Assembly: GCA_003971905.1 (NCBI GenBank)
Contig: RSEE01000059.1
Span: 186,001 to 250,000 of the forward strand
Source of the DNA: Moniliella sp. 'wahieum'
Taxonomy: Eukaryota
Direction: 5' to 3'
Length of the DNA: 64,000 bases
The stretch's first letter is position 1. Each line of letters starts with the position of its first letter. The notes under the pieces were generated by a model. It saw only the letters and a program-made list of their open reading frames with translations, did not search any database and was not told the origin of the DNA. This document shows positions 12,104-58,634 of this stretch, piece after piece. A program made the position numbers and the translations under genes.

Positions 12104-14328
12104 TTACCACCGACGGTTGTTGCCCATCGAGTAGGCGTTCGCACCCGAGCGTCCTCCACCCCGACCACGGAACCCACCCGCGACCGACCAAACCGGCGAC
12201 CACCGCCGCCGCCAGAGTAGCGCACCATGCCTTCCAACTCGGCCGGAACCTCCTGCTTGGCCTCGCGAAGAATCTTGACCAACTCACGCGCCGATTTCGA
12301 GTTGTCAGAAGTGAAGAAGGTGATCGCGGTGCCCTTGGCCCCGGCGCGGCCAGTACGGCCAATCTGGTGAATGTAGTCCTCCACGTTGGGCATGTCGACA
12401 TTGATCACATACGCAATGTCCTTGACGTCTGAAATAGCAAGGTAGGTCAGTAGAAGCCCTCAGGGCCCCATGCCCCTCCCACCCTGGAACCGAACAATCG
12501 GGCCAAAAGGAGGCGGGGCAAGAGAAACAGAGAACGGAAGCAAGGTCCAGAGCCGCACGCTAAGCCCACTCCCGGAAGAGCAGACCAAGTGCAGTCCGGG
12601 ATCAACCCTCCTTGTGCTCGGGCACAGGGGAGGGGCGAGGACCAGGTCCTCGTCCCCACCCCAGCCAAGCGGACCACATGGGAAACAAGCGTGACCCGCC
12701 AAAGAGACGGGGCCGCCTTGTCCAAGCCGCCATACCAGAACCAATCGAAGCGACACAATCGTCGCCAGTACTGCGACCCCCCGTGGTGCACGAAACATTA
12801 GGGGAGCCCAGCACTCAACAAGAGGCTCGAAGCACAGTCGGGTGGCACAGCGCCTTTTCTCGAACAAGCACACGCTTCCCCGCGCAACCGCTGGACCGAG
12901 GTCACAGAGGGCAGGGAAACATGGCTCGTACACCAGATACGACAGTAGGCAGAACATCTGCCGCCTGGTCAAGAAAGAGGAGCAAACAAGGTAAAAGAGA
13001 AGAAATCGGAACAACAAAGGACGCTTGCAAACGATTCAAAGAAATGGGGACATACCGAGACCACGCGAGGCCACCGCCGTGGCAACGAGAATGGGCGACG
13101 CACCCGATTTGAACTCGCGCAAAACCCAATCACGCTCACGTTGTTCCTTGTCGCCGTGAATGGCCAATGCAGGCCAGCCGTCCTCACGAAGGAACTTGGT
13201 GAGCTCGTCCGCGAGACGCTTCGTGTTGGTGAAAATGATGACCTTGGAGTTCTCTTGGCTGATCTTCTCAAGGTGCGTGACAAGCTTGCCCCGCTTCTCA
13301 AAGTCGGAAGTGACCTCGACGACTTGGGTCACGTTGTGGTTGGCCGACAACTCGTGGCTGCCAATGTTCACCTGGTAAGGTTCCTGAAGGAAGTCGTGGG
13401 CCAAGCGCTGCACCTCCTTGGGCCAGGTGGCGGAGAACATGAGGGTTTGCCGGTCGGGGCGGACCTGCTCGAGAATCTTGCGGATCTGCGGCTCAAAGCC
13501 CATGTCCAGCATACGGTCCGCCTCGTCCATGACAATGTACGTCACCCGACGCAGGTTGGTCTTGCCAATCTCGATCATGTCAATCAGACGACCGGGGGTG
13601 GCAACCACAATCTCAGCCCCGCGCGACAGCTCGCGAATCTGCTGCCCCTTGGGCACACCGCCGTACACCGCCGTGGTGCGAATGCGGCTGGAAGCACGGA
13701 ACTTTTCGCACTCGCCTTGGATCTGGTTGGCCAGTTCACGAGTGGGGGCAAGGAAGAGGGCAATGGGACCGTCGCCGGGCTTGAGCAAAGGCTGGGCATT
13801 GACGTGCACCATGGCGGGCAACGCAAAGCCGATCGTCTTGCCCGAACCAGTCTGAGCAATGGCGACCAAGTCGTGGCCGGACATGGCCATGGGCCAAGCC
13901 TGGCACTGGATAGGGGTGGGCGAGTCAAAGCCCATCTTCTTCAGCTCCTTGGTAATGTAGTCGGGGAAGCCAGCCTCGTCAAAGGTTTGAATCGGACGGG
14001 GCACGTTGGCGCCTTGGATAGTCATCTGCTTCTCATCACGGTACGCCTTGATCTCAGCATCCGAGCGGGCCGTGACAGAGGGAGCCTCGTGGTAAAAGTT
14101 CTTCTCAAACGAGGGCAGCTCTTGGCCAGACCAGTCAACAGAGCGGAGGTTGGCACCGAGCTGAGCCATGCGGTCGCCACCGCCATAGCTATCGGCGCCA
14201 TAGCTGTCGCCACCGTAGCCACCGCCGCCATAGCCACCGCGGCCACCGCCGTAGCCGCCTCCATTGCGGCTGCCATAGCTGTCGTTGCCGTAGCCGCCGC
14301 GGCCAGAGTTGTAACCACCGTAAGACAT
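12104..14328 (-). CDS. DBP2: DEAD-box RNA helicase Dbp2 (p68/DDX5)
   Basis: Gly/Tyr/Arg-rich N-terminus, [60 protein letters not shown], ends ..NNRRW*. Intron 13055..12429. Confidence 0.95.
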
Positions 14329-14505
14329 GTTGGAGATGAAGGACGGGTGTGCTGGCCGGGTCGAGGGAAGATGGGGGGATGAGGACAGACGCGAGGGCAC
14401 GGCTGGCTGGCTTATTTATGCGACGTATCGGTGCCCTCACTCCTGGAGGCGGGGTGTACAGTTGAAAAAAAAACACGCAGCGCCCGGCCAGTGTGTAGGG
14501 CGGGT

Positions 14506-22128: not shown

Positions 22129-23062
22129 GGAAGAGGGAGGCTGTGGCCGTTGGACGTTGGTCGCCAATGAGGCCTGAGGGAGAGTGATAGGGAGGAGTGA
22201 GGCTGAGGCGCGGAGCCTTAGCCGAGGCACTGCATCATCCTTTGGATGATCGATGATCGATCGCCAGTGGCGGAGAAGCGGCGTCGAGGAGCAATGGCTA
22301 AACGGGTTAATGCAATGGCAGACAATGGCCGCCACGCGTCGCGGGTGTCATCGATCATCGATCATCGGTGAACATATCGGCCATCTTCCATCTTGATCGA
22401 TCTGTGATCATTGAAACGCGGCGCGTGATGTGCGGCGCGTGACGTGTGACGCGACAGGTGGCTTCTTCTCGGTTACCGCTTTCGCAAATTTATGAACGCC
22501 GCCAGGTTGCCATTTGCATTCTCAAAGCCACCAGTGTGGGCAGCACGAGGCAGCACGCAAAAGAGGCACATGTGACGCTCTGCATTTCTGGGTTGCATGA
22601 CGTGTACGTTGTCGCGCAACTCGGCAACGCAGGACTCAGGCAGTACTCAGTTACTCTCAGCCTGGTCTCGGATCTCAGAGTGCAGAATCCACAATGCATG
22701 CCATGCATGATCAACAGCCGATGAGATCGATGATCCCCACACCATGGTGTCTCTCGGCTTCGGACTTGGCCGGAGTTATGCCGACAAAAAAAAAAACTCC
22801 TCGGAGCAGCCATGCACCGTGCAACACAAGCGGTGTCGCTCCGCTTTGGCCGTACGCTTTGAAATTTGATACCGCGTCGCTAGTAACCAAGTAACCGGGT
22901 AACCGCCTGATTTGCGTGTTCCTTTTGCAGACGCAGGGCAGACGCTGGTCTACCCCAGCGTGCCCCCCAATATACGGTTTCTGGTGAAAAGCTTCAAGCG
23001 CTCAGTAGCTGCTGATCGATGACCGTCGAGGACCCCAGCCTTGGCTTGCAACTGGCTGGCAC

Positions 23063-23278
23063 TGTTGGACCCGTGGTCCCGTACTTAGGCCAAGGCGCCT
23101 CATCACCCTTCACCCCTGATTTGTCCTCCGAAGCCTCCACGTGTATACTCAGGCTTGTCTGAACCCCTGTCTCTAGGTGTGGCACAAGGCTTAGACCTTA
23201 ACCACCACCATCGCGATTGCATTGCTCTACATTTCCAGAGGTTCTTCACCCAATCCCTTGGGTTCCTCCGGTCTTACA
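23063..23278 (+). repeat. 5' LTR (216 bp)
   Basis: TGTTGGACCC..GGTCTTACA; identical to the 3' LTR except one G in a homopolymer. Confidence 0.97.
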
Positions 23279-23317
23279 GAGTTACAATCCTCTTGACGCT
23301 CAGCCCTGAGCCTTCCA
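23279..23317 (+). promoter_or_regulatory. Multipartite primer-binding site complementary to the 5' half of mature tRNA-Tyr(GUA)
   Basis: GAGTTACAATC (tRNA nt 40-30), TGACGCTC (29-22), CTGAGC (15-10), CTTCCA (22-17), compared with the tRNA gene at 50729-50822. Confidence 0.85.
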
Positions 23318-23384
23318 CTCTTACACTCTTCGGTCCTCCGCTGCCGGCCCTATCCACAAGCGCTTGCTCGAACTGCGTAAGCTA

Positions 23385-26300
23385 ATGGCAAGCATCATGA
23401 GCTCTCAGACTCAGGAGTCTTGGTTCAACTCCTCAACCCCTACTTCACCAACTGCCGGAGCAGAAGAGAGCACCACTCCCGTCGGAGTTGACCACGCCTC
23501 CCCGCCGCTGACACCATCGCGTGAATCTACCCCTACACCTCAACCCACCCCCGTGGGCCCCGACAACACCGCGAACGACGTCGCCACCCTCGCCGACCGC
23601 ATTCGCAACATGTTCAAATTGTTTCCCGAACACATCACCCTCAAACAGCTACAGGACACTGGTATCAAGCTTGGGTACAGCGAAAAGACGACCACAGAAG
23701 CCATTGTCATGTTATCATGTGAGAATCCACCCAATGCTAGCAAGAACGAAGGTGCCTTATCGTCAACTCCGGCCGTCGACGACAACCCGTGGGCTTTGAC
23801 TCCCGACAAGCTCCTCCGTAGTGCCACTCGCAGCAACGTGCCGTACCACGAGCGTTTCCACAACAACAGCTCGTTTTGGTTATGGACCCGGATCTTCCTC
23901 CCTCGTATCCAGATTATCCCTGGAGCGCGTGAGCATCTGGAACAGGGCAAGGCCCTGGACGGGTATAACGCAGAACTGGACGCTCACTTGGCCAACATTC
24001 TACTCCCGTGGATAGACTCCGACGTCGTCCAGCAGATCACCGGCGATGGCACGCCGGCTCTAGGGTCTGCATACTATCATGCTCTGCGTGATTTGTACGG
24101 CACCGTTTCAGACACTGAGATCTGTGATATCCTCATAAAGGTTCTCACTCTCAAAATGGGCACCAAGTCGGGCCGCCAATACCTGAATGAGTTCACTGTG
24201 GCGGTAACCCAGTACGAGATGACGTCCAAGTCCAAGCTGGACGAGATTGGTCTAGCACAGATGCTACGGAAAGGCGTTACTGATCAGGGGTGGTTGCACC
24301 TCCATCCATCGTAACAGCAGCTACGCCGAATTGCGCCGAGCAGTGAGCGAACTCAAAGGCTCCAACTACGGCAGTACCTCCAGTTCAAGCCCAGCTCCCT
24401 CCAGTACGGCCCCTTCGGAAGCCACGTCGCACAGCCAAACAAGCAGTACGGTGACAGGCCGCGGACGAGGCCGAGGTGGCAGCGGGTACAGAGGAAGTCA
24501 CCGTGGTGGCCAACGTGGCGGCCACTTTAGCCGGCCGGCTACGACAGCCCAGACCACCTCATCTGCCCATGCAGTAACCCCTATGGCAGCCACTACACCA
24601 CCCAAGCCAGCCAACCTCCCTGCGCAACACGATTCAGGTGCGAGACCATCCGTATTCAATGAACGAAGTGCGTTTATCAATCTTCGTCCACACCGCGAGC
24701 CCATAGCAGTGGCAAACGGACAGATCGCATACACTGAAGGCATTGGCACCATCTCTATGTACATTCAAACCCAGAACGGAGCCCCTATCCGCATCCACCT
24801 ACCCGGCAGCTTGTACTGCCCCACCTTCCCGACCAACCTGCTCAGCGCTTACCATCTATCTATCGCAGGCATTGGCAGCTGGATCCCTCCAGGTGGCCAT
24901 GGTCTCTATCTCGGACGACACGGCGAACCTTTTCGTCTCGCCGCCGACTCAAGCTATTCCCTTACTCTGGCGCCCAATACGACAGCCACAGCCAACAGCG
25001 CCACTTCGCTACTCAACCTTGATGCAACCCTGGTCAAGGTGAAAAACGCCCACATCCGATGGAATCATGCACCTCTAGATCAACTTTCATCCCTCACGTC
25101 GGATGACCCAGCATTCGAACGGGTCAACAGTGGCGACATCGCTTTAGTCCGGTCCTCGTGGCACTGTGCACCATGCGCATTAAGCAGAGCCACTGCCCCA
25201 CCCCACGCCACGACTGGACGCCCAATCCGAACCATTCGCCCTTTCTCTCTCCTCCACCTCGACGTCCTTGACATATCCCGCCAAGGCGGCGGGGTCATAC
25301 TTACGCCCTTATCATTGTCGACGACTTTACGCGGTATACCTGGACGCTACCCCTGGTGTCCAAGGGTGATGCCACAGCCGAACTTCAAGCCTTCATCCGG
25401 CGCGAGCATCGCCAACATCCCGACCGCCCCCTTCAGACGGTCCGCTCTGACAATGCGCCTGAACTCACCACCGCAATGGACGAGTTTTACTGCGAGCTGG
25501 GAGTAGTGAGCGAGCGCACCAATCCTGGCGAAAGTGCGTCCAATGGGGTCGCCGAACGCGCCATAAGATCGATTACGGATCGCGCTCGACTCATGGTAAT
25601 CGCCAACAGATTGACTCCCGACGAGTGGTGGGAACACAGCTTGTTGGCGGCCACATATGCACACAACCAGTCGCCGCCGAAAGCACTGGGTGGGGACAGC
25701 CGATTTGTCCGGTACCATGGCTTCAAACCCTCCCTTCGCATGCGCGGTTTTGGCACTCTTGCCTACCTGCACCTATTGCCCAACCAACGCGAGGGCGGCA
25801 AACTTGGTCCGCGGGCCGTCCCAGCAATGTTGGTGGGTTACGGGCACGGCCGCGGTTCGAAGGGGTGGCTCTTTGCCATCCACCAGGACGACGGCCAAGT
25901 TGGATTCCGTTGGAAAAAGCCGTCCACCTGGACGCATGTCCCGTACACCACCGAATATCCCACGCACTTTCATCTGGACCCCCTTGTCCCTGCTGGTGGC
26001 GGAGAGGTGCGGGGGGGCGGAGAAATGGGTGCTGGTGGGAAGTCAGACAGCTCCCCACCCCGGCGTGTGCGTTTTGCGATAGATGAACTGACCCGCGATA
26101 CTAATGGTAAGAAAGACAATGCCCCCCATGGAAAAAGAAAATTAAAAGAACGAAAAACAGAGGCACATCGCCCGGCTCAAGCCAACGAAAATGAGAATTC
26201 AGAGCCTGGCCCCACTCCCACCAACTCCAACCCCCCACATGTATCCCCCCAACCTGTTGCATCTGACCCCGCAGGCATGGCACAACGCCAGGCAAAGCAA

Positions 26301-28343
26301 GCCGAAGAAAATGAAACTATCACAGAAGATGCCGTTGACACTGGCCACCAAGTCCTGCTTTCCCCTCCCTCTTCCACTTCCCCTTCCTCTCCCGCCCTAT
26401 CCCCCTCCCCTCTCTCCCCCACCGACACGCTCGCCCCCGTGACCGTGCCCCTGACCGATACAGCCGTCCCCGCACTCGTGCGTCGCAATCCCGTTCGCCA
26501 AGCGCGTATCAACGCTCCACCCCTCGACCTGTCCATTCCAGCCAACGACAATTTGCGCGATGGCACCTTTTCCCTGCTCGTCAACAAGGCCCCTAGCATC
26601 TTTGGCAACCCGGCCGCCCTCTCCGCCCTAGGAATGCAGGCTTTGGTGAGTATTTTCGGACCAGCGCCGGACACATCCATGCTACCTGCTTCGGAGCCAA
26701 GCTCGCCCCCCATTGCACTCGCAATCGAATCCGCGGCAAGTGACACCGAGGTCATACTGACCACCGATGGGGTCCCGGTGGCCCCCAAGAACATCAAGAA
26801 GTTGGTGGGTCACCCTGCCTTTGATGGCGTACTCGAGGCAATGCGCCTCGAGCTTCGGCGTTTTGACGAGCGTGACGTGAAGGAAGTTGTACCCATCCCC
26901 CCAGGGATCAAACCCCTTCCCGGCATGTGGGTCATAGGTACTAAGACGGATGCGGATGCTAACTTCCTCAAGTACCGTGCCCGCTACGTTGTGGGAGGGC
27001 ACCGGCAAGTTCCTGGCACATGGGCGAAATCTTTTGCTCCTGCCGTTCGTACTGCTGCCGTCAACACGCTAATTGCGTTGGCCGAAGCTGATGGCCTCCA
27101 CTTATTTTCTGCCGATGTGGAAGCTGCCTACCTCTATGCCGATATCAACGAGCTCGTCTATGTTCGACCACCCCCCTTCTTCCCAGAAGCGCCCGGTCAT
27201 TGCTGGAGACTCAAGAAAAGTCTCTATGGCCTGCACCAGAGCGGGGCCAACTTTGGAGATTGGCTCCGCACTTTCCTTTGCGACCGACTCCACTTCACTA
27301 GCCTAAAATCAGAGCCTTGCCTGTTCATACGTCGCACCGAACCTCTTGGCCTGATCCTAATCGCCGTCCACACTGACGACTTTTTGGTCGCGTGTCGGTC
27401 CCAAGAAGCGTATGATGAATTCTTAGTGGAATTAAGGCGCAGCATCCAAATTAAGTCCAACGGCCCCCTACGTTTCCATCTCGGCTGCCAATACGACCGT
27501 ATCGATGGACGACTGTACATCAGCCAACCCAAATTCATCGCTGAGACGCTTGCCGCGCATGACATATCACCTCACCGGCCCCGCTACCTTCCAATCGGCC
27601 ACCAACTTCCGCCTCCCAAGCGACCCGAACACGAAAAGCGTGCCACTCGAGACGAGCACCGTGCCTACCGTTCTATTGTCGGATCCAGCTTGTGGGCGGC
27701 TCGTATGTCCCGGCCTGATGCCCTCTTTGCGGCTACCTTTTTAGCGCGGTTTATGGACGACCCGTCCGCCGCCCACCGACGCGCAGCGGAGGACCTATTA
27801 CGTTTCTTCGCCGGTACGTCTGACTACTCTTTGTGCCTCACACCCAACCGATCTCGCCCTCTACTCGAGCTGCACACCGATGCCTCCTTTGCATCAGACA
27901 AGAGCAACTCTCACTCCGTTTCGGGCCATGTTGTTTTTGTTTTCGGTGTGCCTGTATCCTGGGGCTCCAAGTCCCAAAATCAAGGTGTGAGCAACACAGC
28001 AGCATCTGAATACCTAGCCATGGGAGATGGCCTTCGAGATGCTCTATTCATTCGCAACATACTGTTTGAACTTGGTGTCTGCAAGGCTAATCACCCGATT
28101 GAGCTCTTTGTTGACAACACCGCTGCCAAAGCGTTGGCCGAAAAGCTCGGCAGCCTAGGCAAAATACGGGAGATTGACGTCTCGTACCACGAGGTGCGGG
28201 AACGCATCCACCGAGGCGAAATTAAAGTCCACTACACTCCAGGTGCACACCATCTCCCTGACTGGTTCACCAAACCTCTTTCTCTTCCCAAGATCATTTC
28301 TGCGCGTAACAATTTCGATTTGGCTTCTCTTTCTTCGCGCTGA
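23385..28343 (+). CDS. Gag-Pol polyprotein of the copia element (breaks near 24300 and 25300 probably sequencing indels)
   Basis: PR HDSGA; IN HIRWNH..CAPC, LLHLDV, VRSDNAPE, SNGVAERAIR, KLGPRA; RT YRARYVVGG, ADVEAAYLYA, LKKSLYGLHQSG, VHTDD; RH HTDASFA, SEY, VDNTAA, DWFTKPL. Confidence 0.93.
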
Positions 28344-28408
28344 TCCCCTTTCTACTTTTCTTTTGTTGATGGCCAACGGGCTTCTTTCGTTCCCTTGGCC
28401 CGGGGGGG

Positions 28409-28625
28409 TGTTGGGACCCGTGGTCCCGTACTTAGGCCAAGGCGCCTCATCACCCTTCACCCCTGATTTGTCCTCCGAAGCCTCCACGTGTATACTCAGG
28501 CTTGTCTGAACCCCTGTCTCTAGGTGTGGCACAAGGCTTAGACCTTAACCACCACCATCGCGATTGCATTGCTCTACATTTCCAGAGGTTCTTCACCCAA
28601 TCCCTTGGGTTCCTCCGGTCTTACA
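28409..28625 (+). repeat. 3' LTR (217 bp)
   Basis: TGTTGGGACCC..GGTCTTACA, preceded by the PPT and followed by the TSD. Confidence 0.97.
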
Positions 28626-28731
28626 GGCACATTTGTTTTCTTCCAATTCCCCTTCCCACCAACACCCCATCTCCTCTATCCACCCCACCGACCGTGCACA
28701 TGACGAACGGCCGCCCGGCCTGCTCACCGTC

Positions 28732-50728: not shown

Positions 50729-50822
50729 TCTCCCCTCTGGGAGTCGAACCCAGGACATTCAGAGCGACGATAGCCGCGTGACCGATTACAATCTGACGCT
50801 CTTCCAACTGAGCTAAGGAGAG
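50729..50822 (-). tRNA. tRNA-Tyr(GTA) with 21-nt intron (50785..50765)
   Basis: CTCTCCT/AGGGGAG acceptor stem (C1:G72, A73), A box TAGCTCAGTTGG, TCAGA/TCTGA anticodon stem, GGTTCGACTCC B box, T-run terminator. Confidence 0.95.
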
Positions 50823-51665: not shown

Positions 51666-51751
51666 TTCCCCAACCGGGAGTCGAACCCGGGTCTTCACGG
51701 ATCAGCGAATTGCTTGAAAGCGTGACATCATAGCCGTTGGACCATTGAGGA
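51666..51751 (-). tRNA. tRNA-Glu(TTC) with 14-nt intron (51714..51701)
   Basis: TCCTCAA/TTGGGGA acceptor stem, TCACG/CGTGA anticodon stem, CTTTCA loop, GGTTCGACTCC, T-run terminator. Confidence 0.93.
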
Positions 51752-53001
51752 CTGATTAAACAAGGCGCTTGTGAAAGGCTTATCAGCTTGCGGCTGGCAG
51801 GTCATCGCGTGTACAAGGAAAATGAAAATATCCTTCACATTTGTTCTTATCCCCTCAGACAACTCGGTTCACGTAGGACGACCTGAAGCCAGGCCCAGTC
51901 GCAAATCGGGCGTCTCCACCTCTTGTGATACCACTTCTCTCATTCTAAAGCGACGCAGTTTTTGCCGTGGTGCGAGAGGTGGTGATTAGCGCATTCTGAC
52001 TGCTGCGGCTGCCTCACCTCAACCGTGTCCTGACTGGATTTGACATTATTGGGCACCCATTGTCAGCGCTTGGCTGGTCTTTCTCCCATTTCCAATTTCT
52101 TCGTCCTGAGCGTCTCGCGCTTTCTCTGTTCTGCTGCGTCTCGTGCCATATGTCCTCTGTTCTCGCTTTTTCTCCACGAACGATTGCTATACAAAATCCT
52201 TGACCTTAGTAGTAGTCTCGACTCTGGTTTCCCTCACCTTACTAGTCCCGACTGTAGTGTGCAGCTCATTTCACCCTGGCTATCCGCATACGTTGGGAAA
52301 TGGGAGAGACATAACGTAGTGGGCTTGTCAATAATGCATAGTCGATCATCTCCTTCTCTCTCGGACATATATCTATTGACAGCAACACAACCACCTCCAT
52401 TATGTCGCTGATGCACATGTGTTTGCTTTTTGTATAATGTAGCAGAGAAGACCTCTCAGAATTCATCAACATACTGTATAGGTGACAGAGCAGGGGGGGG
52501 CAGCTATGGTTGGTGTAATGGATGATCTGTGCACGTTCAGTGTAGGTGCACTCCGTTAGTAGCTACGATATCAAATCTATATTGTTTTGTCTACTGTCTT
52601 TTTCTCTATGAACGCATGTATGCCTGGGCTGTAATGATCGAGAAAACGACGGTCTGAGAGCTAGTACCATTGGTGAAACATAAAAGCAAATTGTTCGACA
52701 AAAAAACAAACATCAAAGACTGTCACCAAACAGGGAGATGGGCGGGAGTATACAACAGAGGAGAGAGACACAGGATGAGGCGTTACCTCACAAAAGAAAG
52801 GCCCAAAATGACGCAGGACGGTGGCGGCCACATACGGAAAAGGGCAGATGTGTATGTAAACACATTTTAGAGAGCTCGTCCGTATGACGCGCATCCTTCG
52901 TCCCGAAACAGAAGAGAAAAAATGGAATGTGGGTGTGGTAACATACACACACACAGTTGATGCAAGTCGCGCGCAAACGCGTGAATTCCAGATAAAGCAG
53001 A

Positions 53002-53640
53002 TTAGTTGAAGGAGACGATGCGCACACCGTTAATCACCCCCTTTTTGAGAGGCGCAAGGGCAGAGAAGACAGCCTTGGTTGCATCAAGGTGCTTCAAAAG
53101 AGAGAGAGAGAGAAATAGATGTCAGTATATTGTGTCTAGAAGAGAAGACCGAACGCATATACTTACATGAGGGCTACATCCCTCACATTTGTCAACCACG
53201 GTGGCGCGCACCATCTTTCCGTTACTACACGAAGGTAAAAGAGTTAGTATACCAAGTGCAAACGGGTATCAGGTCGTGAGAGATGACTGGGAGATGAAAA
53301 ATGGAGACTGGAAGATGAAAAATGGAGACTGGAAGATGAAAATGGAATGGTGAAGAGTATAGATGTACGTACGCGTGCAGTTGGACCTTAGCCCCGCAGC
53401 GATAAGGCGAGTTTTTACCAACGGCAACAACAAGGTCCCAGTCGTGGGGCTTGGAACCACCGCAAGCCGGATTGTCGAGTGACGAACCAGAGTACCAAGT
53501 CAACTTTCCATTTTATAGCTGCGGAAGCCGCGCTTTTCCATGGCATCAGCATCAGTGTTGGTTGAGGCGTTGGGGATTACAGCAGCCGAAGCAATGGCGG
53601 CCATGTAGGCGACCGTGGCAACGATGGTCGAGAGCTGCAT
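53002..53640 (-). CDS. Secreted RlpA-like double-psi beta-barrel (loosenin/expansin-like) protein
   Basis: Signal peptide MQLSTIVATVAYMAAIASA, Kex2-like EKR, TWYSG..PACGG..DLVVAV..CGAKV, ATVVDKCE(G)C, HLDATKAVFSALAPL; introns 53372..53225 and 53166..53092; TATATATAA at 53735-53743. Confidence 0.85.
53283..53348. repeat. 21-bp minisatellite (GACTGGAAGATGAAAAATGGA, about 3 copies) in DPBB intron 1
   Basis: Read directly from sequence. Confidence 0.85.
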
Positions 53641-55768
53641 GGTGGGAAGATGGAGTGTGTGAAAGTGCAGAAAACGTAGGCGAGAGTTGGGTATGTGGGG
53701 GGAAGGAGGAGAGGCGGGTGAGTTGCGACGTAGGTTATATATACGACCATGTATTCACTCCAGATCTGGGGATACTTGCCCCCTTCTCACCAGAAGACAA
53801 AAAATATACCATCTCCCCCTGCCTCGGATTATACCAGTAAGTGTGCGGTGACCGCATATGAAGAGAGTGGCCTAGAGTGGCTTTCCTTCGGTGTTTGTGA
53901 ACAGAAGGGGGGGTATACTGTGGTGCACAAGTACTAAAGTAATATAGTAAGAGACTTTCCTAACGTCGTCAGCCCCTCCCCCTGCTTTTTTCGGAAAGAG
54001 GGGGGTCACGGGGTCTCACCCGCCGCCTCGGTTGTCTCTCTCTCCGCCCGAAGACGATCTTCCCCAGTTCCTGCCCCTTGGGGGCGTATATACATGTTCG
54101 GTTTAAGGTTCCCCAGTAACCTATAACCGGTAACCGTTCACCGTTCAACGTTCACCCACTATTAACTATTGTAAAAAACCTGTGCGCGTTGTTATTTGCT
54201 TGCACGCAACATCTGCATGTCACATTTTTGTCTCACGTTACAACTAGAGGAACGCGCGGGCCACAGCTAAAGCGGGCGGGGGGGTGTCTTTGGGCGGGTT
54301 ATATAACCGACTCCATGGGCGCAATGCAAATCAGGGTGGTATCACATGTCACATGTCACAGTCACCGTCGCGGGCTATAGTCGCCTAGTCCCGAGCTAGT
54401 CCCTGTTAGGCACCAGGGACCAGGCACCTGTCAGATACCAGGTCTCAGATGTCACATGTCATGCATGTCACCGGTCAGGCCCAGGTCTCAGGCCTCTCAG
54501 GCTGGTCAGCACAACTCAGTCAGACCCAGGGCTCAGGCTCTTCGGCCGAGCTAAGGCGCTCAGGCGCTCAGGGACAGTCAAGGTCTATAGACTACAAAAG
54601 CCGCCAAGACCAGTATGTCAAGCTTTTCAAGAGTTTTAAGCACTACTAATAACTACACTTTACCAGTATCATATACGCCGTGTGCACTTCACGGTTTGCT
54701 TTTTTTTTTGTGTTTCGGTAACGTAAATGTTCCGAATTCGAATGGATGCTGTGGCGTTCAAGTCGTGAACCAATAAACCCTCAATGTGTTCAACCTTCGC
54801 CGGCCTGAGGTCAGTGACCGGCCTGGCTTTTCTTTTGTTGTACAAAAGAATGATGAAAGGGTGACAGGATGTATTTTTGTAATGGCCTTCCCACATATGT
54901 GTATGCACAGAATCATCGAGGTCGCCATATACCTCTGTGATTTCCTTTTAATTCATCTACTAGTCGATGACCCCAGGTTTTCTTTGCAATTCATCGTGAA
55001 GTGCTGTTGAGAAACCCCCCGAGATCGGAAGAAACGCATAGCGGCTGTGTTGCTGCTTGTGCGGCATTGTTTCGGGACTTGTTTTGCCACACAAAAACTT
55101 ACAGTGCACAGCCTCTCTCTGTGATAATAACAGAAGGCGTAGTACTACGTTGCTTCAGTCTTTATAATAACCGTAAAACCTTCTGTATATACCCATAGCG
55201 GCTTTCGGTTACCCCGGTTACAGTTTAGTACCGGTCTTAGATCTTACCCCTGAAAGCGTGACCCGTCCAAATTGCTGGGGAGATAGCCTTTTGGACAGTA
55301 TATATTACCTCTCTCCAGATGCCAGATGAGCTTTGCATTCATCGCTATCCCTCTATATCCCTCATCACTAGTCGCTTGCGAACGCTTCTCCTATAGAGCC
55401 AACAACTGATGAGGCCCGGGGGTCTATCATTGCTCCATCCACGCAGAACATCCTTCCTTTTCACTCCCTCTCTCTTGCCTCTTCCTTCCTGCCGGGCGAG
55501 CGGCAATGATTAATGATTCGCAGGTTGCCAATATATATGACCGGTATGGCCGGTTGTACTTCATATTGAGCACATTACAGCACCCCCGTTGCCTGTGGTT
55601 GCGCTCTCGCCCAAATGTGAGATCGATCCTCGAGCGCAGGTGAGCAGTCCTCGGTCTCTCTTTCCCCTGTTTTTTTTTTTTATTTTGTCTTAAATTCCAC
55701 ATTCGACCCCGCCCCCCACCATGCATCAGGCCTCCGGTATCATATATCATCGACCATCGGTCATCACC

Positions 55769-56038
55769 TGTTTTGGAGGGTAGTGCTAGGTAGAGTTCCC
55801 CTGTACGGCAGTCTACTTCAAGTTGGTCGGTGAAGCTTGATGGTCGCCTAGTTGGACGGATGAGTTCTGCTCACAGGCTTCGCACACCCTAGTATGCTCG
55901 CTCCATCTCACTCTCTCCTGTCTCATTCCCATCCGACGTTGTTTGAAAACTTGTGGCTCACCACTTTGCCTTCACGCCTTGTCTGAAGGCTGCTTTTTTC
56001 ATGCGATTCCGAGTGCTCCTACAAGTCGCACTCCAGCA
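55769..56038. mobile_element. Solo LTR, family B, copy 2
   Basis: TG..CTCCAGCA termini; TSD TCACC at 55764-55768 and 56039-56043; shares GGAGGGTAGTGCTAGG, TGCTCGCTCCATCTC and GGCTCACCACTTTGCCTTCACGCCTTGTCTGA with copy 1. Confidence 0.88.
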
Positions 56039-56399
56039 TCACCTTTTGTGGGGAAAGGGGAATTAAACATCAACAATTCTTTGGTTTTACCAAGGAGGGT
56101 ATATATACTGAAGGAGTACTTCACTCGGTACATTTGTGCGAAGTCGGCGCTGAATCTATAGTTCACATAATATAAGAGAACCCTGTTTTCGAGCCCGGAC
56201 AGTATATTATTGAAGACGAGATGACGAGAGGGGTGTGAGCCGTCACATAAACCATACAGCTCAAACATTGTGGGCAGGGTATATCTTTGGGAGATAAATA
56301 CTTCTCATTTCTCCCACCCCCAAAGGATGTGGATGCTCTGCTCTCTGTGAACAGAGGGTGCTAGAGAAAAGGTAGAGGGCATCTATTCCCGATAGTCAC

Positions 56400-57800
56400 A
56401 ACGTCGCTACAGATATTCTCTGTCACCGACGGGCAAGAAGACGGGCCGGCGAGACCTTAGCCGAGACTTGCGCACTCCGCGGGAGTAGGCCCCCTCCGTT
56501 TTCATATGAGTCAGCCGACCCAAAGCGATGCAATTATCTCCTCCCACAGATGGAGTAGAAATGAGGAAACTCCGCACCGAAATGCGTAAAGACATGCCTT
56601 TTGTGAAGGGGAGCGTGATGTTCAGGGCCTTCCCTCGGGTCCAATCTGTGTTGATAAGGCTCAAATGGGCTGTGCGTAACCTGTTGGCGACGAGAACAGT
56701 CACCCCTTACCTTTCTATATTTCCGTTACCCACACGTTTTTGTTCTCGCTGGTGACGGAGCAAAGCAGGTCTGCTTTTCCTGTTTTTCCCTGCCCGGGAA
56801 CAGTCTCCCGTGTGGCGACTGTTCCCAAGCTAATGTTTTCTAACCTCTCGTTCTCCCTCTCTACTGGGTTGTTTTCCCAATAGTCCCTTTCCTGTGTATC
56901 CTATGATGCTTCGTGGTTTTCTTCCACGATCCCCATTGGCGTCTCCACACCTTCGTCAATCCACAACCGTACCGGTAACTTCTCCTCGTCGTTGACTCAT
57001 TTTCCCTCCACCACATCGCCTCTCAACTACCCATATATATCAACAGCTATTAAGTTTATCAGCCGTTCAGGGTTAGTCTTTCCTGTATCCAATCCGTGGT
57101 AGCTCCACTGCAGCCCTAACTTCCAGTCTCAGCAGTACCAATTCCAGTTCCCGCGCCAGTCCAAGTTGTGGCAGTGTTGTCTCCGCTGCCTTTCCACCCG
57201 TCCCCGGTACGAACGTCTTTGGGCACTTTGCTACTGCCTAGGTCTGTGCCTTTACCTGCTTCTCGCCATATAAGTCTCTGCCATGCGTCGATGAGCCCCA
57301 GACTGGGACCCAGCCATGACATTCTGTTTCATACATATGTTAAAACTATATCAGTCTCGATTTTGTCATCAATCGCGGTACGAGAGGCACCAAAGCCTCA
57401 CCATCTCATTCCTATTCTCAATGAAATGAGTATGCATCGTATTGGGCCGTCCTTCGCAGCCTAGAGTAGATTATGCTCTCATTTTTGGGTATAGTCAGCA
57501 CCACACATCATTTATCCACGGATAAGGACCAGAAGAAAGATGTATATTCCAAGAAACAATAAGACCTACGCACTGATAGTACGTAGAGTGGTTGTCCACA
57601 GCAAACTGTGATGAAGCCGCTATTCACCTTGAATTCAACGAAAGTGCCGAACGAACAGCATCTCCCGCAATGCCTATACGTCATTACACTCTATTTTACT
57701 GTCATAAGGTGCTTTGGAATGCTCCTGGAAGACGCGCTACGACCCCACAACATAAGTGGGCAAAACCCTCCCACACCTTGTGTTTTATTTTGACGAAACG
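56400..57800 (+). mobile_element. Possible highly decayed copia pol relic
   Basis: SPPTDGVEMRKLRTEM resembles integrase SPQQNGVAERKNRTL; SKKQ near 57548 and RT..IRHY near 57650 resemble RNase H blocks. Weak. Confidence 0.3.
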
Positions 57801-58634
57801 CTAAGGATTCCCCCCACAAATGAGATAAAGCCAATGTACTCTGCTGTTTTCAAATCGTTTTCAAACGCATTATACATCTCCCCTTGCAGTTCCCCAGCTT
57901 TCCAGCTCTCGAGAGTCCTTGGTGCTTTTCGAACACAACCATCACCATAGTCCTGCACTTCTTCCGATACATGTGATGCTAACGAGGCCCACAAATCCAC
58001 CACACTTTTGCTAATGAGAGCACCGTTGTAGCATTTATATACTATGCACACTCTGCCATGGGTGGCATATGGTCAGGACTATGATGCCAGCGAACAGAGC
58101 CACCCCCCTTCCGTCGTCGAGAGCATAGGGCGTACAAAAGTACATATGCAAAGAGAACACGCGAATCATGGAGGGCAGTCCTCATTGAAACCTATCAGCA
58201 GTATTTCCTTCCTCTTCTGTGTGTGGAGACGCTCTTGTTGCTGCATCTGTCCAGCGTAGTGTGTATATACACAGCAGTACATTTTTTATGAATCCCCACT
58301 ATATACGCTCAGGGGGAAGACGAACCATAGCTGCTTATCGCCCCTGATGTACTGCAGCGATTTATCGTTGGGCGCGCTGTGAAATGTTGAAGCGGCGGTG
58401 TTGAAAACGTTTTGAAACCGCGAGTCGGCCCGGTGGCACAGTTCGAAGCCCGCATGGGGCCACTGTAGAGCAGCAATGACATCAGTGTTGTGTGAAAGCG
58501 GGAATTAGGTCAGCATGCGGCGCAGCTGCTCCATGGAGGGTTTGGCTCGTTCGATAGCCTCATGCTCAGCCCGCCACCCCTTGTCTGGCTGCTCCCATCG
58601 TCCCCGCCTTATCGGTTTACCCATGTGCATCACC

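Follow-up and report, generated by a model that had tools for sequence, protein, structure and literature searches.

A very young Ty1/copia element that probably primes from a 5' fragment of spliced tRNA-Tyr(GUA): a further instance of a known primer type, in an apparently new host lineage

Which primer starts the minus strand of an LTR retrotransposon whose internal region does not open with TGG next to the 5' LTR? The question is raised by a Ty1/copia element found in the window, that is, the whole 64-kb stretch of DNA that was analysed. No TGG start is present at its LTR junction, and when the first 52 internal bases were searched for a primer-binding site (PBS) that could pair with the CCA end of a tRNA, no match of at least 6 nt was found outside tRNA nt 10-40. 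An earlier note on this DNA had proposed that a half tRNA-Tyr, about nt 1-40 of the mature molecule, serves as the primer. The analysis supports this as the most likely answer: the element would prime its minus strand from a 5' fragment of the mature, spliced tRNA-Tyr(GUA), held by a PBS directed at the anticodon stem-loop and not at the CCA end.

The element is 5,563 bp long and occupies 23063-28625, with LTRs of 216 and 217 bp that have TG..CA ends. It is composed of the following parts.

23058-23062, + strand: 5' copy of the target-site duplication, GGCAC (5 bp)
23063-23278, + strand: 5' LTR, 216 bp, first bases TGTTGG, last bases TTACA
23385-24314, + strand: presumed gag open reading frame, ATG at 23385, no Pfam family
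24256-25506, + strand: first part of the Pol frame (+1 relative to gag), with an RGG-rich stretch, Pol_BBD in the protease position and the N-terminal part of the integrase
25272-28343, + strand: second part of the Pol frame, with the integrase core (rve), an SH3-like domain, the RVT_2 reverse transcriptase and the C-terminal region
28402-28408, + strand: polypurine tract G7, adjoining the TG of the 3' LTR
28409-28625, + strand: 3' LTR, 217 bp, beginning TGTTGGG and ending TTACA
28626-28630, + strand: 3' copy of the target-site duplication, GGCAC

The LTRs were first signalled by direct repeats of 213 nt (23067-23279 and 28414-28626), and their limits were set by reading the ends and by blastn of the LTR against the window. 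The two LTRs are 99.5% identical; the 3' LTR has one additional G close to its start, and this is all that differs. This difference, TGTTGG (23063-23069) versus TGTTGGG (28409-28416), sits right after the G7 polypurine tract, and the extra G may have arisen by slippage at plus-strand priming. The Pfam domains follow each other in the order Pol_BBD (E 6.7e-9), rve, SH3_retrovirus (2.7e-6) and RVT_2 (1.4e-37), the rve match (E 6.6e-6, 26.8 bits) lying under its curated cut-off of 32.6. Since the integrase is located upstream of RVT_2 and the target duplication measures 5 bp, the element is assigned to the Ty1/copia type. The presumed gag reading frame matched no Pfam family at E values up to 0.01, and visual inspection of 23385-24700 revealed no CCHC zinc knuckle. 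The pol frame has, upstream of its protease-like domain, an RG/RGG-rich stretch that could act as a nucleic-acid chaperone for the annealing of a structured tRNA half. The stop of gag at 24314 lies 58 nt inside the pol frame, which is open from 24256 in the +1 frame, and expression of Pol from this overlap would require a +1 frameshift or some other route. Neither a further copy nor a solo LTR was detected within the 64-kb window by blastn with the LTR and with the whole element.

The age of the element was approached through its LTRs and its relatives. When the 1,023-aa frame was used as a protein query, 8,000 candidates were scored and 39 of them were hits with E values of 1e-3 or lower. One relative, P0001, is 93% identical and consists of an unbroken Pol of 1,210 aa encoded on a contig of 5,549 nt, while the remaining hits show 23-37% identity, mostly 25-30%. 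The near-identical LTRs together with this unbroken relative indicate that the family was active recently. When P0001 was compared with the window by tblastn, its residues 2-230 aligned at 24607-25293 and its residues 231-1210 at 25293-28340 in another frame. Judged against P0001, a frameshift is thus located within the integrase at a short G-run near 25290 (25285-25296), and represents an inactivation of very recent date or else an assembly error in the homopolymer; given this frameshift, the window copy itself may be dead. In bacterial and archaeal contigs, from which little is to be expected for a fungal element, a scan with the P0001 protein produced 44 pattern matches with none confirmed, and the PBS pattern had no match.

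Two tRNA genes are carried by the window, both on the reverse strand.

50729-50822, - strand: tRNA-Tyr(GUA) gene, called by ARAGORN; Rfam tRNA, 55.6 bits
50822-50786, - strand: 5' exon of the tRNA-Tyr gene
50785-50765, - strand: intron of the tRNA-Tyr gene, 21 nt, after nt 37
50764-50729, - strand: 3' exon of the tRNA-Tyr gene
51666-51751, - strand: second intron-bearing tRNA gene; Rfam, 45.9 bits; missed by ARAGORN

ARAGORN called the tRNA-Tyr gene without an identity, and the Rfam alignment contains an insertion of 22 positions in the anticodon loop. After splicing, the tRNA has 73 nt with GUA at 34-36, and its minimum free energy fold is a clean cloverleaf of -25.9 kcal/mol. This gene, physically separate from the element, is the putative source of the primer. 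The second gene is located about 850 bp away on the same strand; in the cmscan alignment its anticodon reads as UUC (Glu), some 14-16 nt are inserted, and the D-stem has one mismatch. The G+C content is 48-50% at 52001-58000 versus 55-62% elsewhere in the window. As a rule, tRNA-Tyr genes in eukaryotes carry an intron, so that any primer derived from mature tRNA-Tyr is a spliced one; the earlier suggestion that such a primer would tie transposition to tRNA splicing therefore adds little.

The complementarity begins immediately behind the 5' LTR with one uninterrupted block.

23279-23289, + strand: PBS core GAGTTACAATC, complementary to nt 40-30 of spliced tRNA-Tyr(GUA)

All 11 of the 11 bases of the core are complementary to the tRNA, and the contiguous match grows to 13 nt (tRNA 30-42) when the terminal CA of the LTR is included. 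The LTR ends are fixed by the GGCAC duplication and by TG..CA, hence the match sets in with the first internal base. The unspliced tRNA-Tyr gene matches no more than 8 nt of the core (TTACAATC, nt 37-30), beginning 3 nt past the LTR, and the 11-mer thus spans the 37/38 splice junction. In these respects the earlier note had read the sequence well: the junction is not TGG, removal of the intron is needed for the match, and each of the four blocks of complementarity that it had listed was found in its place opposite the tRNA positions given for it.

How far this match exceeds background was assessed by Smith-Waterman alignment of 45 internal bases with the reverse complement of the spliced tRNA-Tyr, which gave a score of 34. 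Shuffled sequences scored 12.3 on average (sd 2.2, maximum 24), and 0 of 5,000 reached 34. The window was also scanned on both strands in 127,440 windows of 45 nt, with the tRNA-Tyr gene left out. Scores of at least 34 were obtained by 23 of these, including those starting at 23257-23279. Those with scores of at least 22 merged into seven loci outside the tRNA-Tyr gene, among which the PBS was the best with 38, followed by the homologous T-arm of the neighbouring tRNA gene with 30, the other five scoring 26 or less. Outside the tRNA-Tyr gene, six exact 11-mers occurred, of which the PBS and the T-arm of the neighbouring tRNA gene had three each. By arithmetic, the chance that an 11-mer at a fixed site matches one of the 63 positions of one tRNA is about 1.5e-5.

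Two competing sources of priming named by the earlier note were examined and rejected. The first was a better-matching tRNA; the comparison covered the two tRNAs of the 64-kb window, and the second of them scored 13 when unspliced, a background value, while none of its 36 splice variants reached 16. The second was a self-priming structure of the Tf1 type. For self-priming, the transcript must carry, close to its 5' end, a sequence able to pair with the PBS. Tf1-type elements lack a CCA-end PBS, as the window element does, and have this complement near the 5' end, whereas no complement of the core of at least 6 nt is present in the 5' LTR of the window element.

The primer itself turned out to have been described. 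As reported in the available portion of Kojima 2024 (PMC10886601), tRNA-Tyr's anticodon loop is assigned as the primer to the rust-fungus element Copia-50_PHord (Puccinia hordei) and to the Helenus TRIMs of the tRNA-Tyr-GTA group, contrary to the statement in the earlier note that this primer was not known from described elements. According to the same portion, the tRNA-Tyr-GTA genes concerned have their intron downstream of the anticodon and the PBS implies the mature, intron-less tRNA; usage of Tyr-GTA as primer arose several times, and Helenus was found in Pucciniales and a few Agaricomycetes (PMC10886601). In the DataS1 file of that paper, as far as it was available, gatttacagtc constitutes the first bases of the internal portion in all ten of its occurrences. 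The anticodon complement TAC stands at internal positions 5-7 in the window element and in each of these ten Helenus leaders, and the shared register implies the same tRNA position as the primer end. The PBS strings of the window element itself gave no hits in the available supplement. The rust PBS and the window PBS differ at two of 11 positions, 3 and 9, which lie opposite tRNA nt 38 and 32, and the window tRNA-Tyr has C38 and U32, matching positions 3 and 9 of the window PBS. Provided that the rust PBS and its tRNA are complementary, which is what the paper says, these two positions would represent co-variation between PBS and tRNA, and co-variation at U32/C38 is what a working PBS would be expected to show.

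Could the complementarity have another cause, such as a non-priming role in packaging or in silencing by tRNA fragments, or mere chance, with the element priming by some other route? The case for priming in this element is drawn from its sequence, and tRNA fragments are known to target PBS sequences, as stated in the available extracts of the literature. Against such a reading, the match is located exactly at the LTR junction, where TGG, a CCA-end match and a self-priming complement are all lacking; chance is excluded empirically (p <2e-4); and the arrangement recurs in independent rust families, judging from the available rust data. A function other than priming is hence given next to no probability.

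In the preferred reading, tRNA-Tyr would be cut to yield a 5' fragment of about nt 1-40, whose 3' end falls in the 3' strand of the anticodon stem, and this fragment would anneal to the 11-nt PBS directly after the 5' LTR. The primer would end at nt 40 if no bases are trimmed at integration, and trimming of 2-3 bases by the integrase would place its end at nt 38 or 37 instead. The existence of the fragment, its cutting, the priming and the importance of the extension blocks described below are all what we infer from the analysis.

A primer of the latter length would correspond to the 5' exon (nt 1-37) released by the splicing endonuclease, or to a 1-38 fragment, with the 2-3 bases after the LTR CA being those lost from the other LTR end at integration. 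It would agree with the 8-nt match of the unspliced gene, which covers nt 37-30 and begins 3 nt past the LTR, and with the gap of 2 nt between CA and PBS that is usual in retroviruses and Ty3-like elements. In copia-type elements, however, a PBS flush with the LTR is usual, and the GAG that would have to be left over matches nt 40-38 of the 3' exon and continues through the LTR CA to make 13 contiguous nt. A freshly cut 5' exon, moreover, ends in a cyclic phosphate and cannot prime. The rust Helenus leaders, in the available data, begin in the identical register. A primer ending at nt 37 or 38 is therefore regarded as very improbable, and since nt 38-42 are matched and the same register is found in the rust elements, nt 40 is favoured as the primer end.

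The core is followed by a spacer and by three shorter blocks complementary to the same tRNA.

23290-23293, + strand: spacer CTCT, 4 nt, an unpaired bulge in the predicted duplex
23294-23301, + strand: block 2, TGACGCTC, complementary to tRNA nt 29-22 (5' strand of the anticodon stem, G26 and 3' strand of the D-stem)
23306-23311, + strand: block 3, CTGAGC, the complement of tRNA nt 15-10 and the one preferred by the predicted duplex
23312-23317, + strand: block 4, CTTCCA, the complement of tRNA nt 22-17 (D-loop), which could pair in place of block 3

With a fragment of about nt 1-40 as primer, a second helix of 8 bp with tRNA nt 22-29, formed past the 4-nt bulge, would probably stabilise the duplex, and further pairing of 6 bp with nt 10-15 or of 5 bp with the D-loop could be added. 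Taken singly, block 3 and block 4 are colinear with block 2; together they cross, which allows only one of the two to pair. When the core was excluded and 23290-23330 was aligned with tRNA nt 1-29, a score of 20 was obtained, a value that 42 of 20,000 shuffles and 255 of 127,262 natural 41-mers also attained (p ~0.002). Block 3 taken alone is not significant (1,147 of 20,000 shuffles, p ~0.06). The tail of 29 nt has two separate 6-mer blocks, as had 79 of 50,000 shuffles. Among 18,278 natural 29-mers, a set that still includes the tRNA gene and the PBS, there were 69 such cases. The earlier note had spoken of a multipartite PBS; this appears plausible from the sequence for block 2, while block 3 does not stand by itself and blocks 3 and 4 exclude each other.

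In stepwise calculation, the predicted duplex energy falls from -14.5 kcal/mol for the core to -27.9 with block 2 added and to -35.8 with block 3 added as well, as compared with -29.8 when block 4 takes the place of block 3. Free cofolding predicted a duplex of -39.6 kcal/mol with a net gain of -26.9, which was reached by none of 1,000 shuffles (best -18.9) and by none of 2,120 natural 42-mers. One natural 42-mer attains a net gain of -26.8, very near the observed -26.9, and the energy control is therefore weak on its own. In eukaryotic tRNAs, G26 is commonly dimethylated and the D-loop contains modified bases, and blocks 2-4 would be the weaker for it.

The element itself has a complement of block 3, at 23298-23303, and the agreement of this block with the tRNA may be a by-product of the complementarity within the leader. 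The resulting inverted repeat GCTCAG..CTGAGC (23298-23310) is the same in sequence as tRNA nt 10-15 and their complement, which makes the hairpin of the leader a mimic of one D-arm strand of the tRNA. Leader RNA alone showed no significant structure (-9.1 kcal/mol, z -1.0, with 33 of 200 shuffles folding as well), the small hairpin forming only weakly in it.

It is quite conceivable, although not the reading preferred here, that the functional PBS consists of the 11-nt core only and that the downstream blocks are relics without a role in annealing. Such relics could have originated when reverse transcriptase read further into the primer during plus-strand strong-stop synthesis, followed by the 4-nt insertion and rearrangement. 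The chance level of block 3 alone (p ~0.057), the fact that blocks 3 and 4 form a permuted reverse complement of tRNA nt 10-22 and are unable to pair together, and the -14.5 kcal/mol that the core is worth by itself all speak for it, as do the cores of 11-12 nt described in the available portions for FunCo1 (PMC5445492) and, in our own reading, present at the starts of the Helenus leaders. On the other hand, the extension as a whole is unlikely to be due to chance (42 of 20,000 and 79 of 50,000 shuffles) and nearly triples the predicted stability of the duplex, and extended PBSs for internal tRNA regions are known from the Candida gamma/Tca2 elements in the accessible part of PMC4139406. Furthermore, in our own reading of the available DataS1, GCTC follows the 12-nt core at a distance of 2-4 nt in seven of ten rust Helenus leaders of the Tyr type, where it would be the complement of a D-stem strand. 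A core with a second helix that probably stabilises the duplex is the view preferred here.

A more far-reaching model, unlikely as it is, would have the leader pair with nearly all of tRNA-Tyr nt 10-40 through three helices (11 + 8 + 6 bp, predicted -39.6 kcal/mol). Annealing would then exchange four strands, with the leader hairpin (GCUCA/UGAGC) and the D-arm both being opened, as a built-in annealing switch particular to half-tRNA PBSs of the Tyr type, and the GCTC of the seven rust Helenus leaders would be its conserved trace.

The host can be placed through its own genes. An open reading frame for a DBP2-type DEAD-box helicase, recognised by Pfam, is present at 13036-14412 on the - strand. 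Its best two hits are 93% and 88% identical, and the nearest named ones belong to Violaceomyces (77%), Tilletia (76%) and Testicularia (76%), followed by Ceraceosorus and Acaromyces (75%) and by Cryptococcus and Rhizoctonia (73-74%). By these sequence likenesses, the host is a basidiomycete, probably near Ustilaginomycotina, and none of the named fungi among the hits is closely related to it. The locus offers a clean and very young example of what is most likely half-tRNA priming, with the element and the gene of its presumed primer inside one 64-kb window, and the tRNA-Tyr type published for rust fungi apparently occurs, through it, in a further lineage of basidiomycetes. Primer class, tRNA species and the connection with the spliced tRNA are already in print, and no new question is opened by them; among the features of the site, only the bulged, extended pairing with the D-arm may be worth an experiment.

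Half-tRNA priming has been reported for a range of elements, and the comparisons that follow draw on the available portions of the papers cited. The copia-superfamily elements copia of Drosophila and Ty5 of yeast use a tRNA-iMet cut in the anticodon region (PMC5371799, PMC10886601), whereas the window element would use tRNA-Tyr. In Candida, families are described with short or 'extensive' PBSs for internal tRNA-Arg and also with PBSs for internal tRNA-iMet (PMC4139406). Among them, Tca2/LTR gamma of Candida albicans likewise has an extended half-tRNA PBS but for tRNA-Arg(UCU); in the accessible part of PMC4139406, neither a 4-nt bulge nor permuted D-arm blocks like those of the window element are described for Tca2/gamma. 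The fungal Copia element FunCo1 has a PBS of 11 nt for internal tRNA-Lys right after the LTR (PMC5445492). In plants, Osser, Bryco and part of Gymco-II are assigned 1/2 tRNA-Met and Bianca 1/2 tRNA-Ile, a half-tRNA cut in the anticodon stem being handled there as a standard primer class (PMC6317226). FunCo1 and the plant elements differ from the window element in tRNA species and in host group. Published half-tRNA primers include those of Met, Arg, Lys, Ile and Asp. As for tRNA-Tyr, bivalve TRIMs show a similarity to the 'central part' of tRNA-Tyr beside the 5' repeat, left unresolved by the authors in the available text of PMC6934838, and an LTRdigest table, in the portion available, gives Tyr-GTA as the primer tRNA for Max-element and GATE.

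The closest parallel remains that of the rust fungi. In the available portion of Kojima 2024, Copia-50_PHord and Helenus are members or dependents of the Copia superfamily with target duplications of 5 bp, like the window element, the likeness to Copia-50_PHord being one of PBS type and description rather than of protein comparison. A Helenus TRIM has a non-coding interior and tRNA-derived sequence in its LTRs, whereas the window element codes for gag and pol; its LTRs contain no tRNA-like sequence, the Rfam tRNA matches in the window being those at 50729-50822 and 51666-51751 only. The host, by its DBP2 homologues, is apparently of a lineage other than the rust fungi and resembles Ustilaginomycotina. 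In conclusion, the element does not bring a new primer but looks like a new instance of the tRNA-Tyr type known from Copia-50_PHord and Helenus, in an apparently new host lineage.
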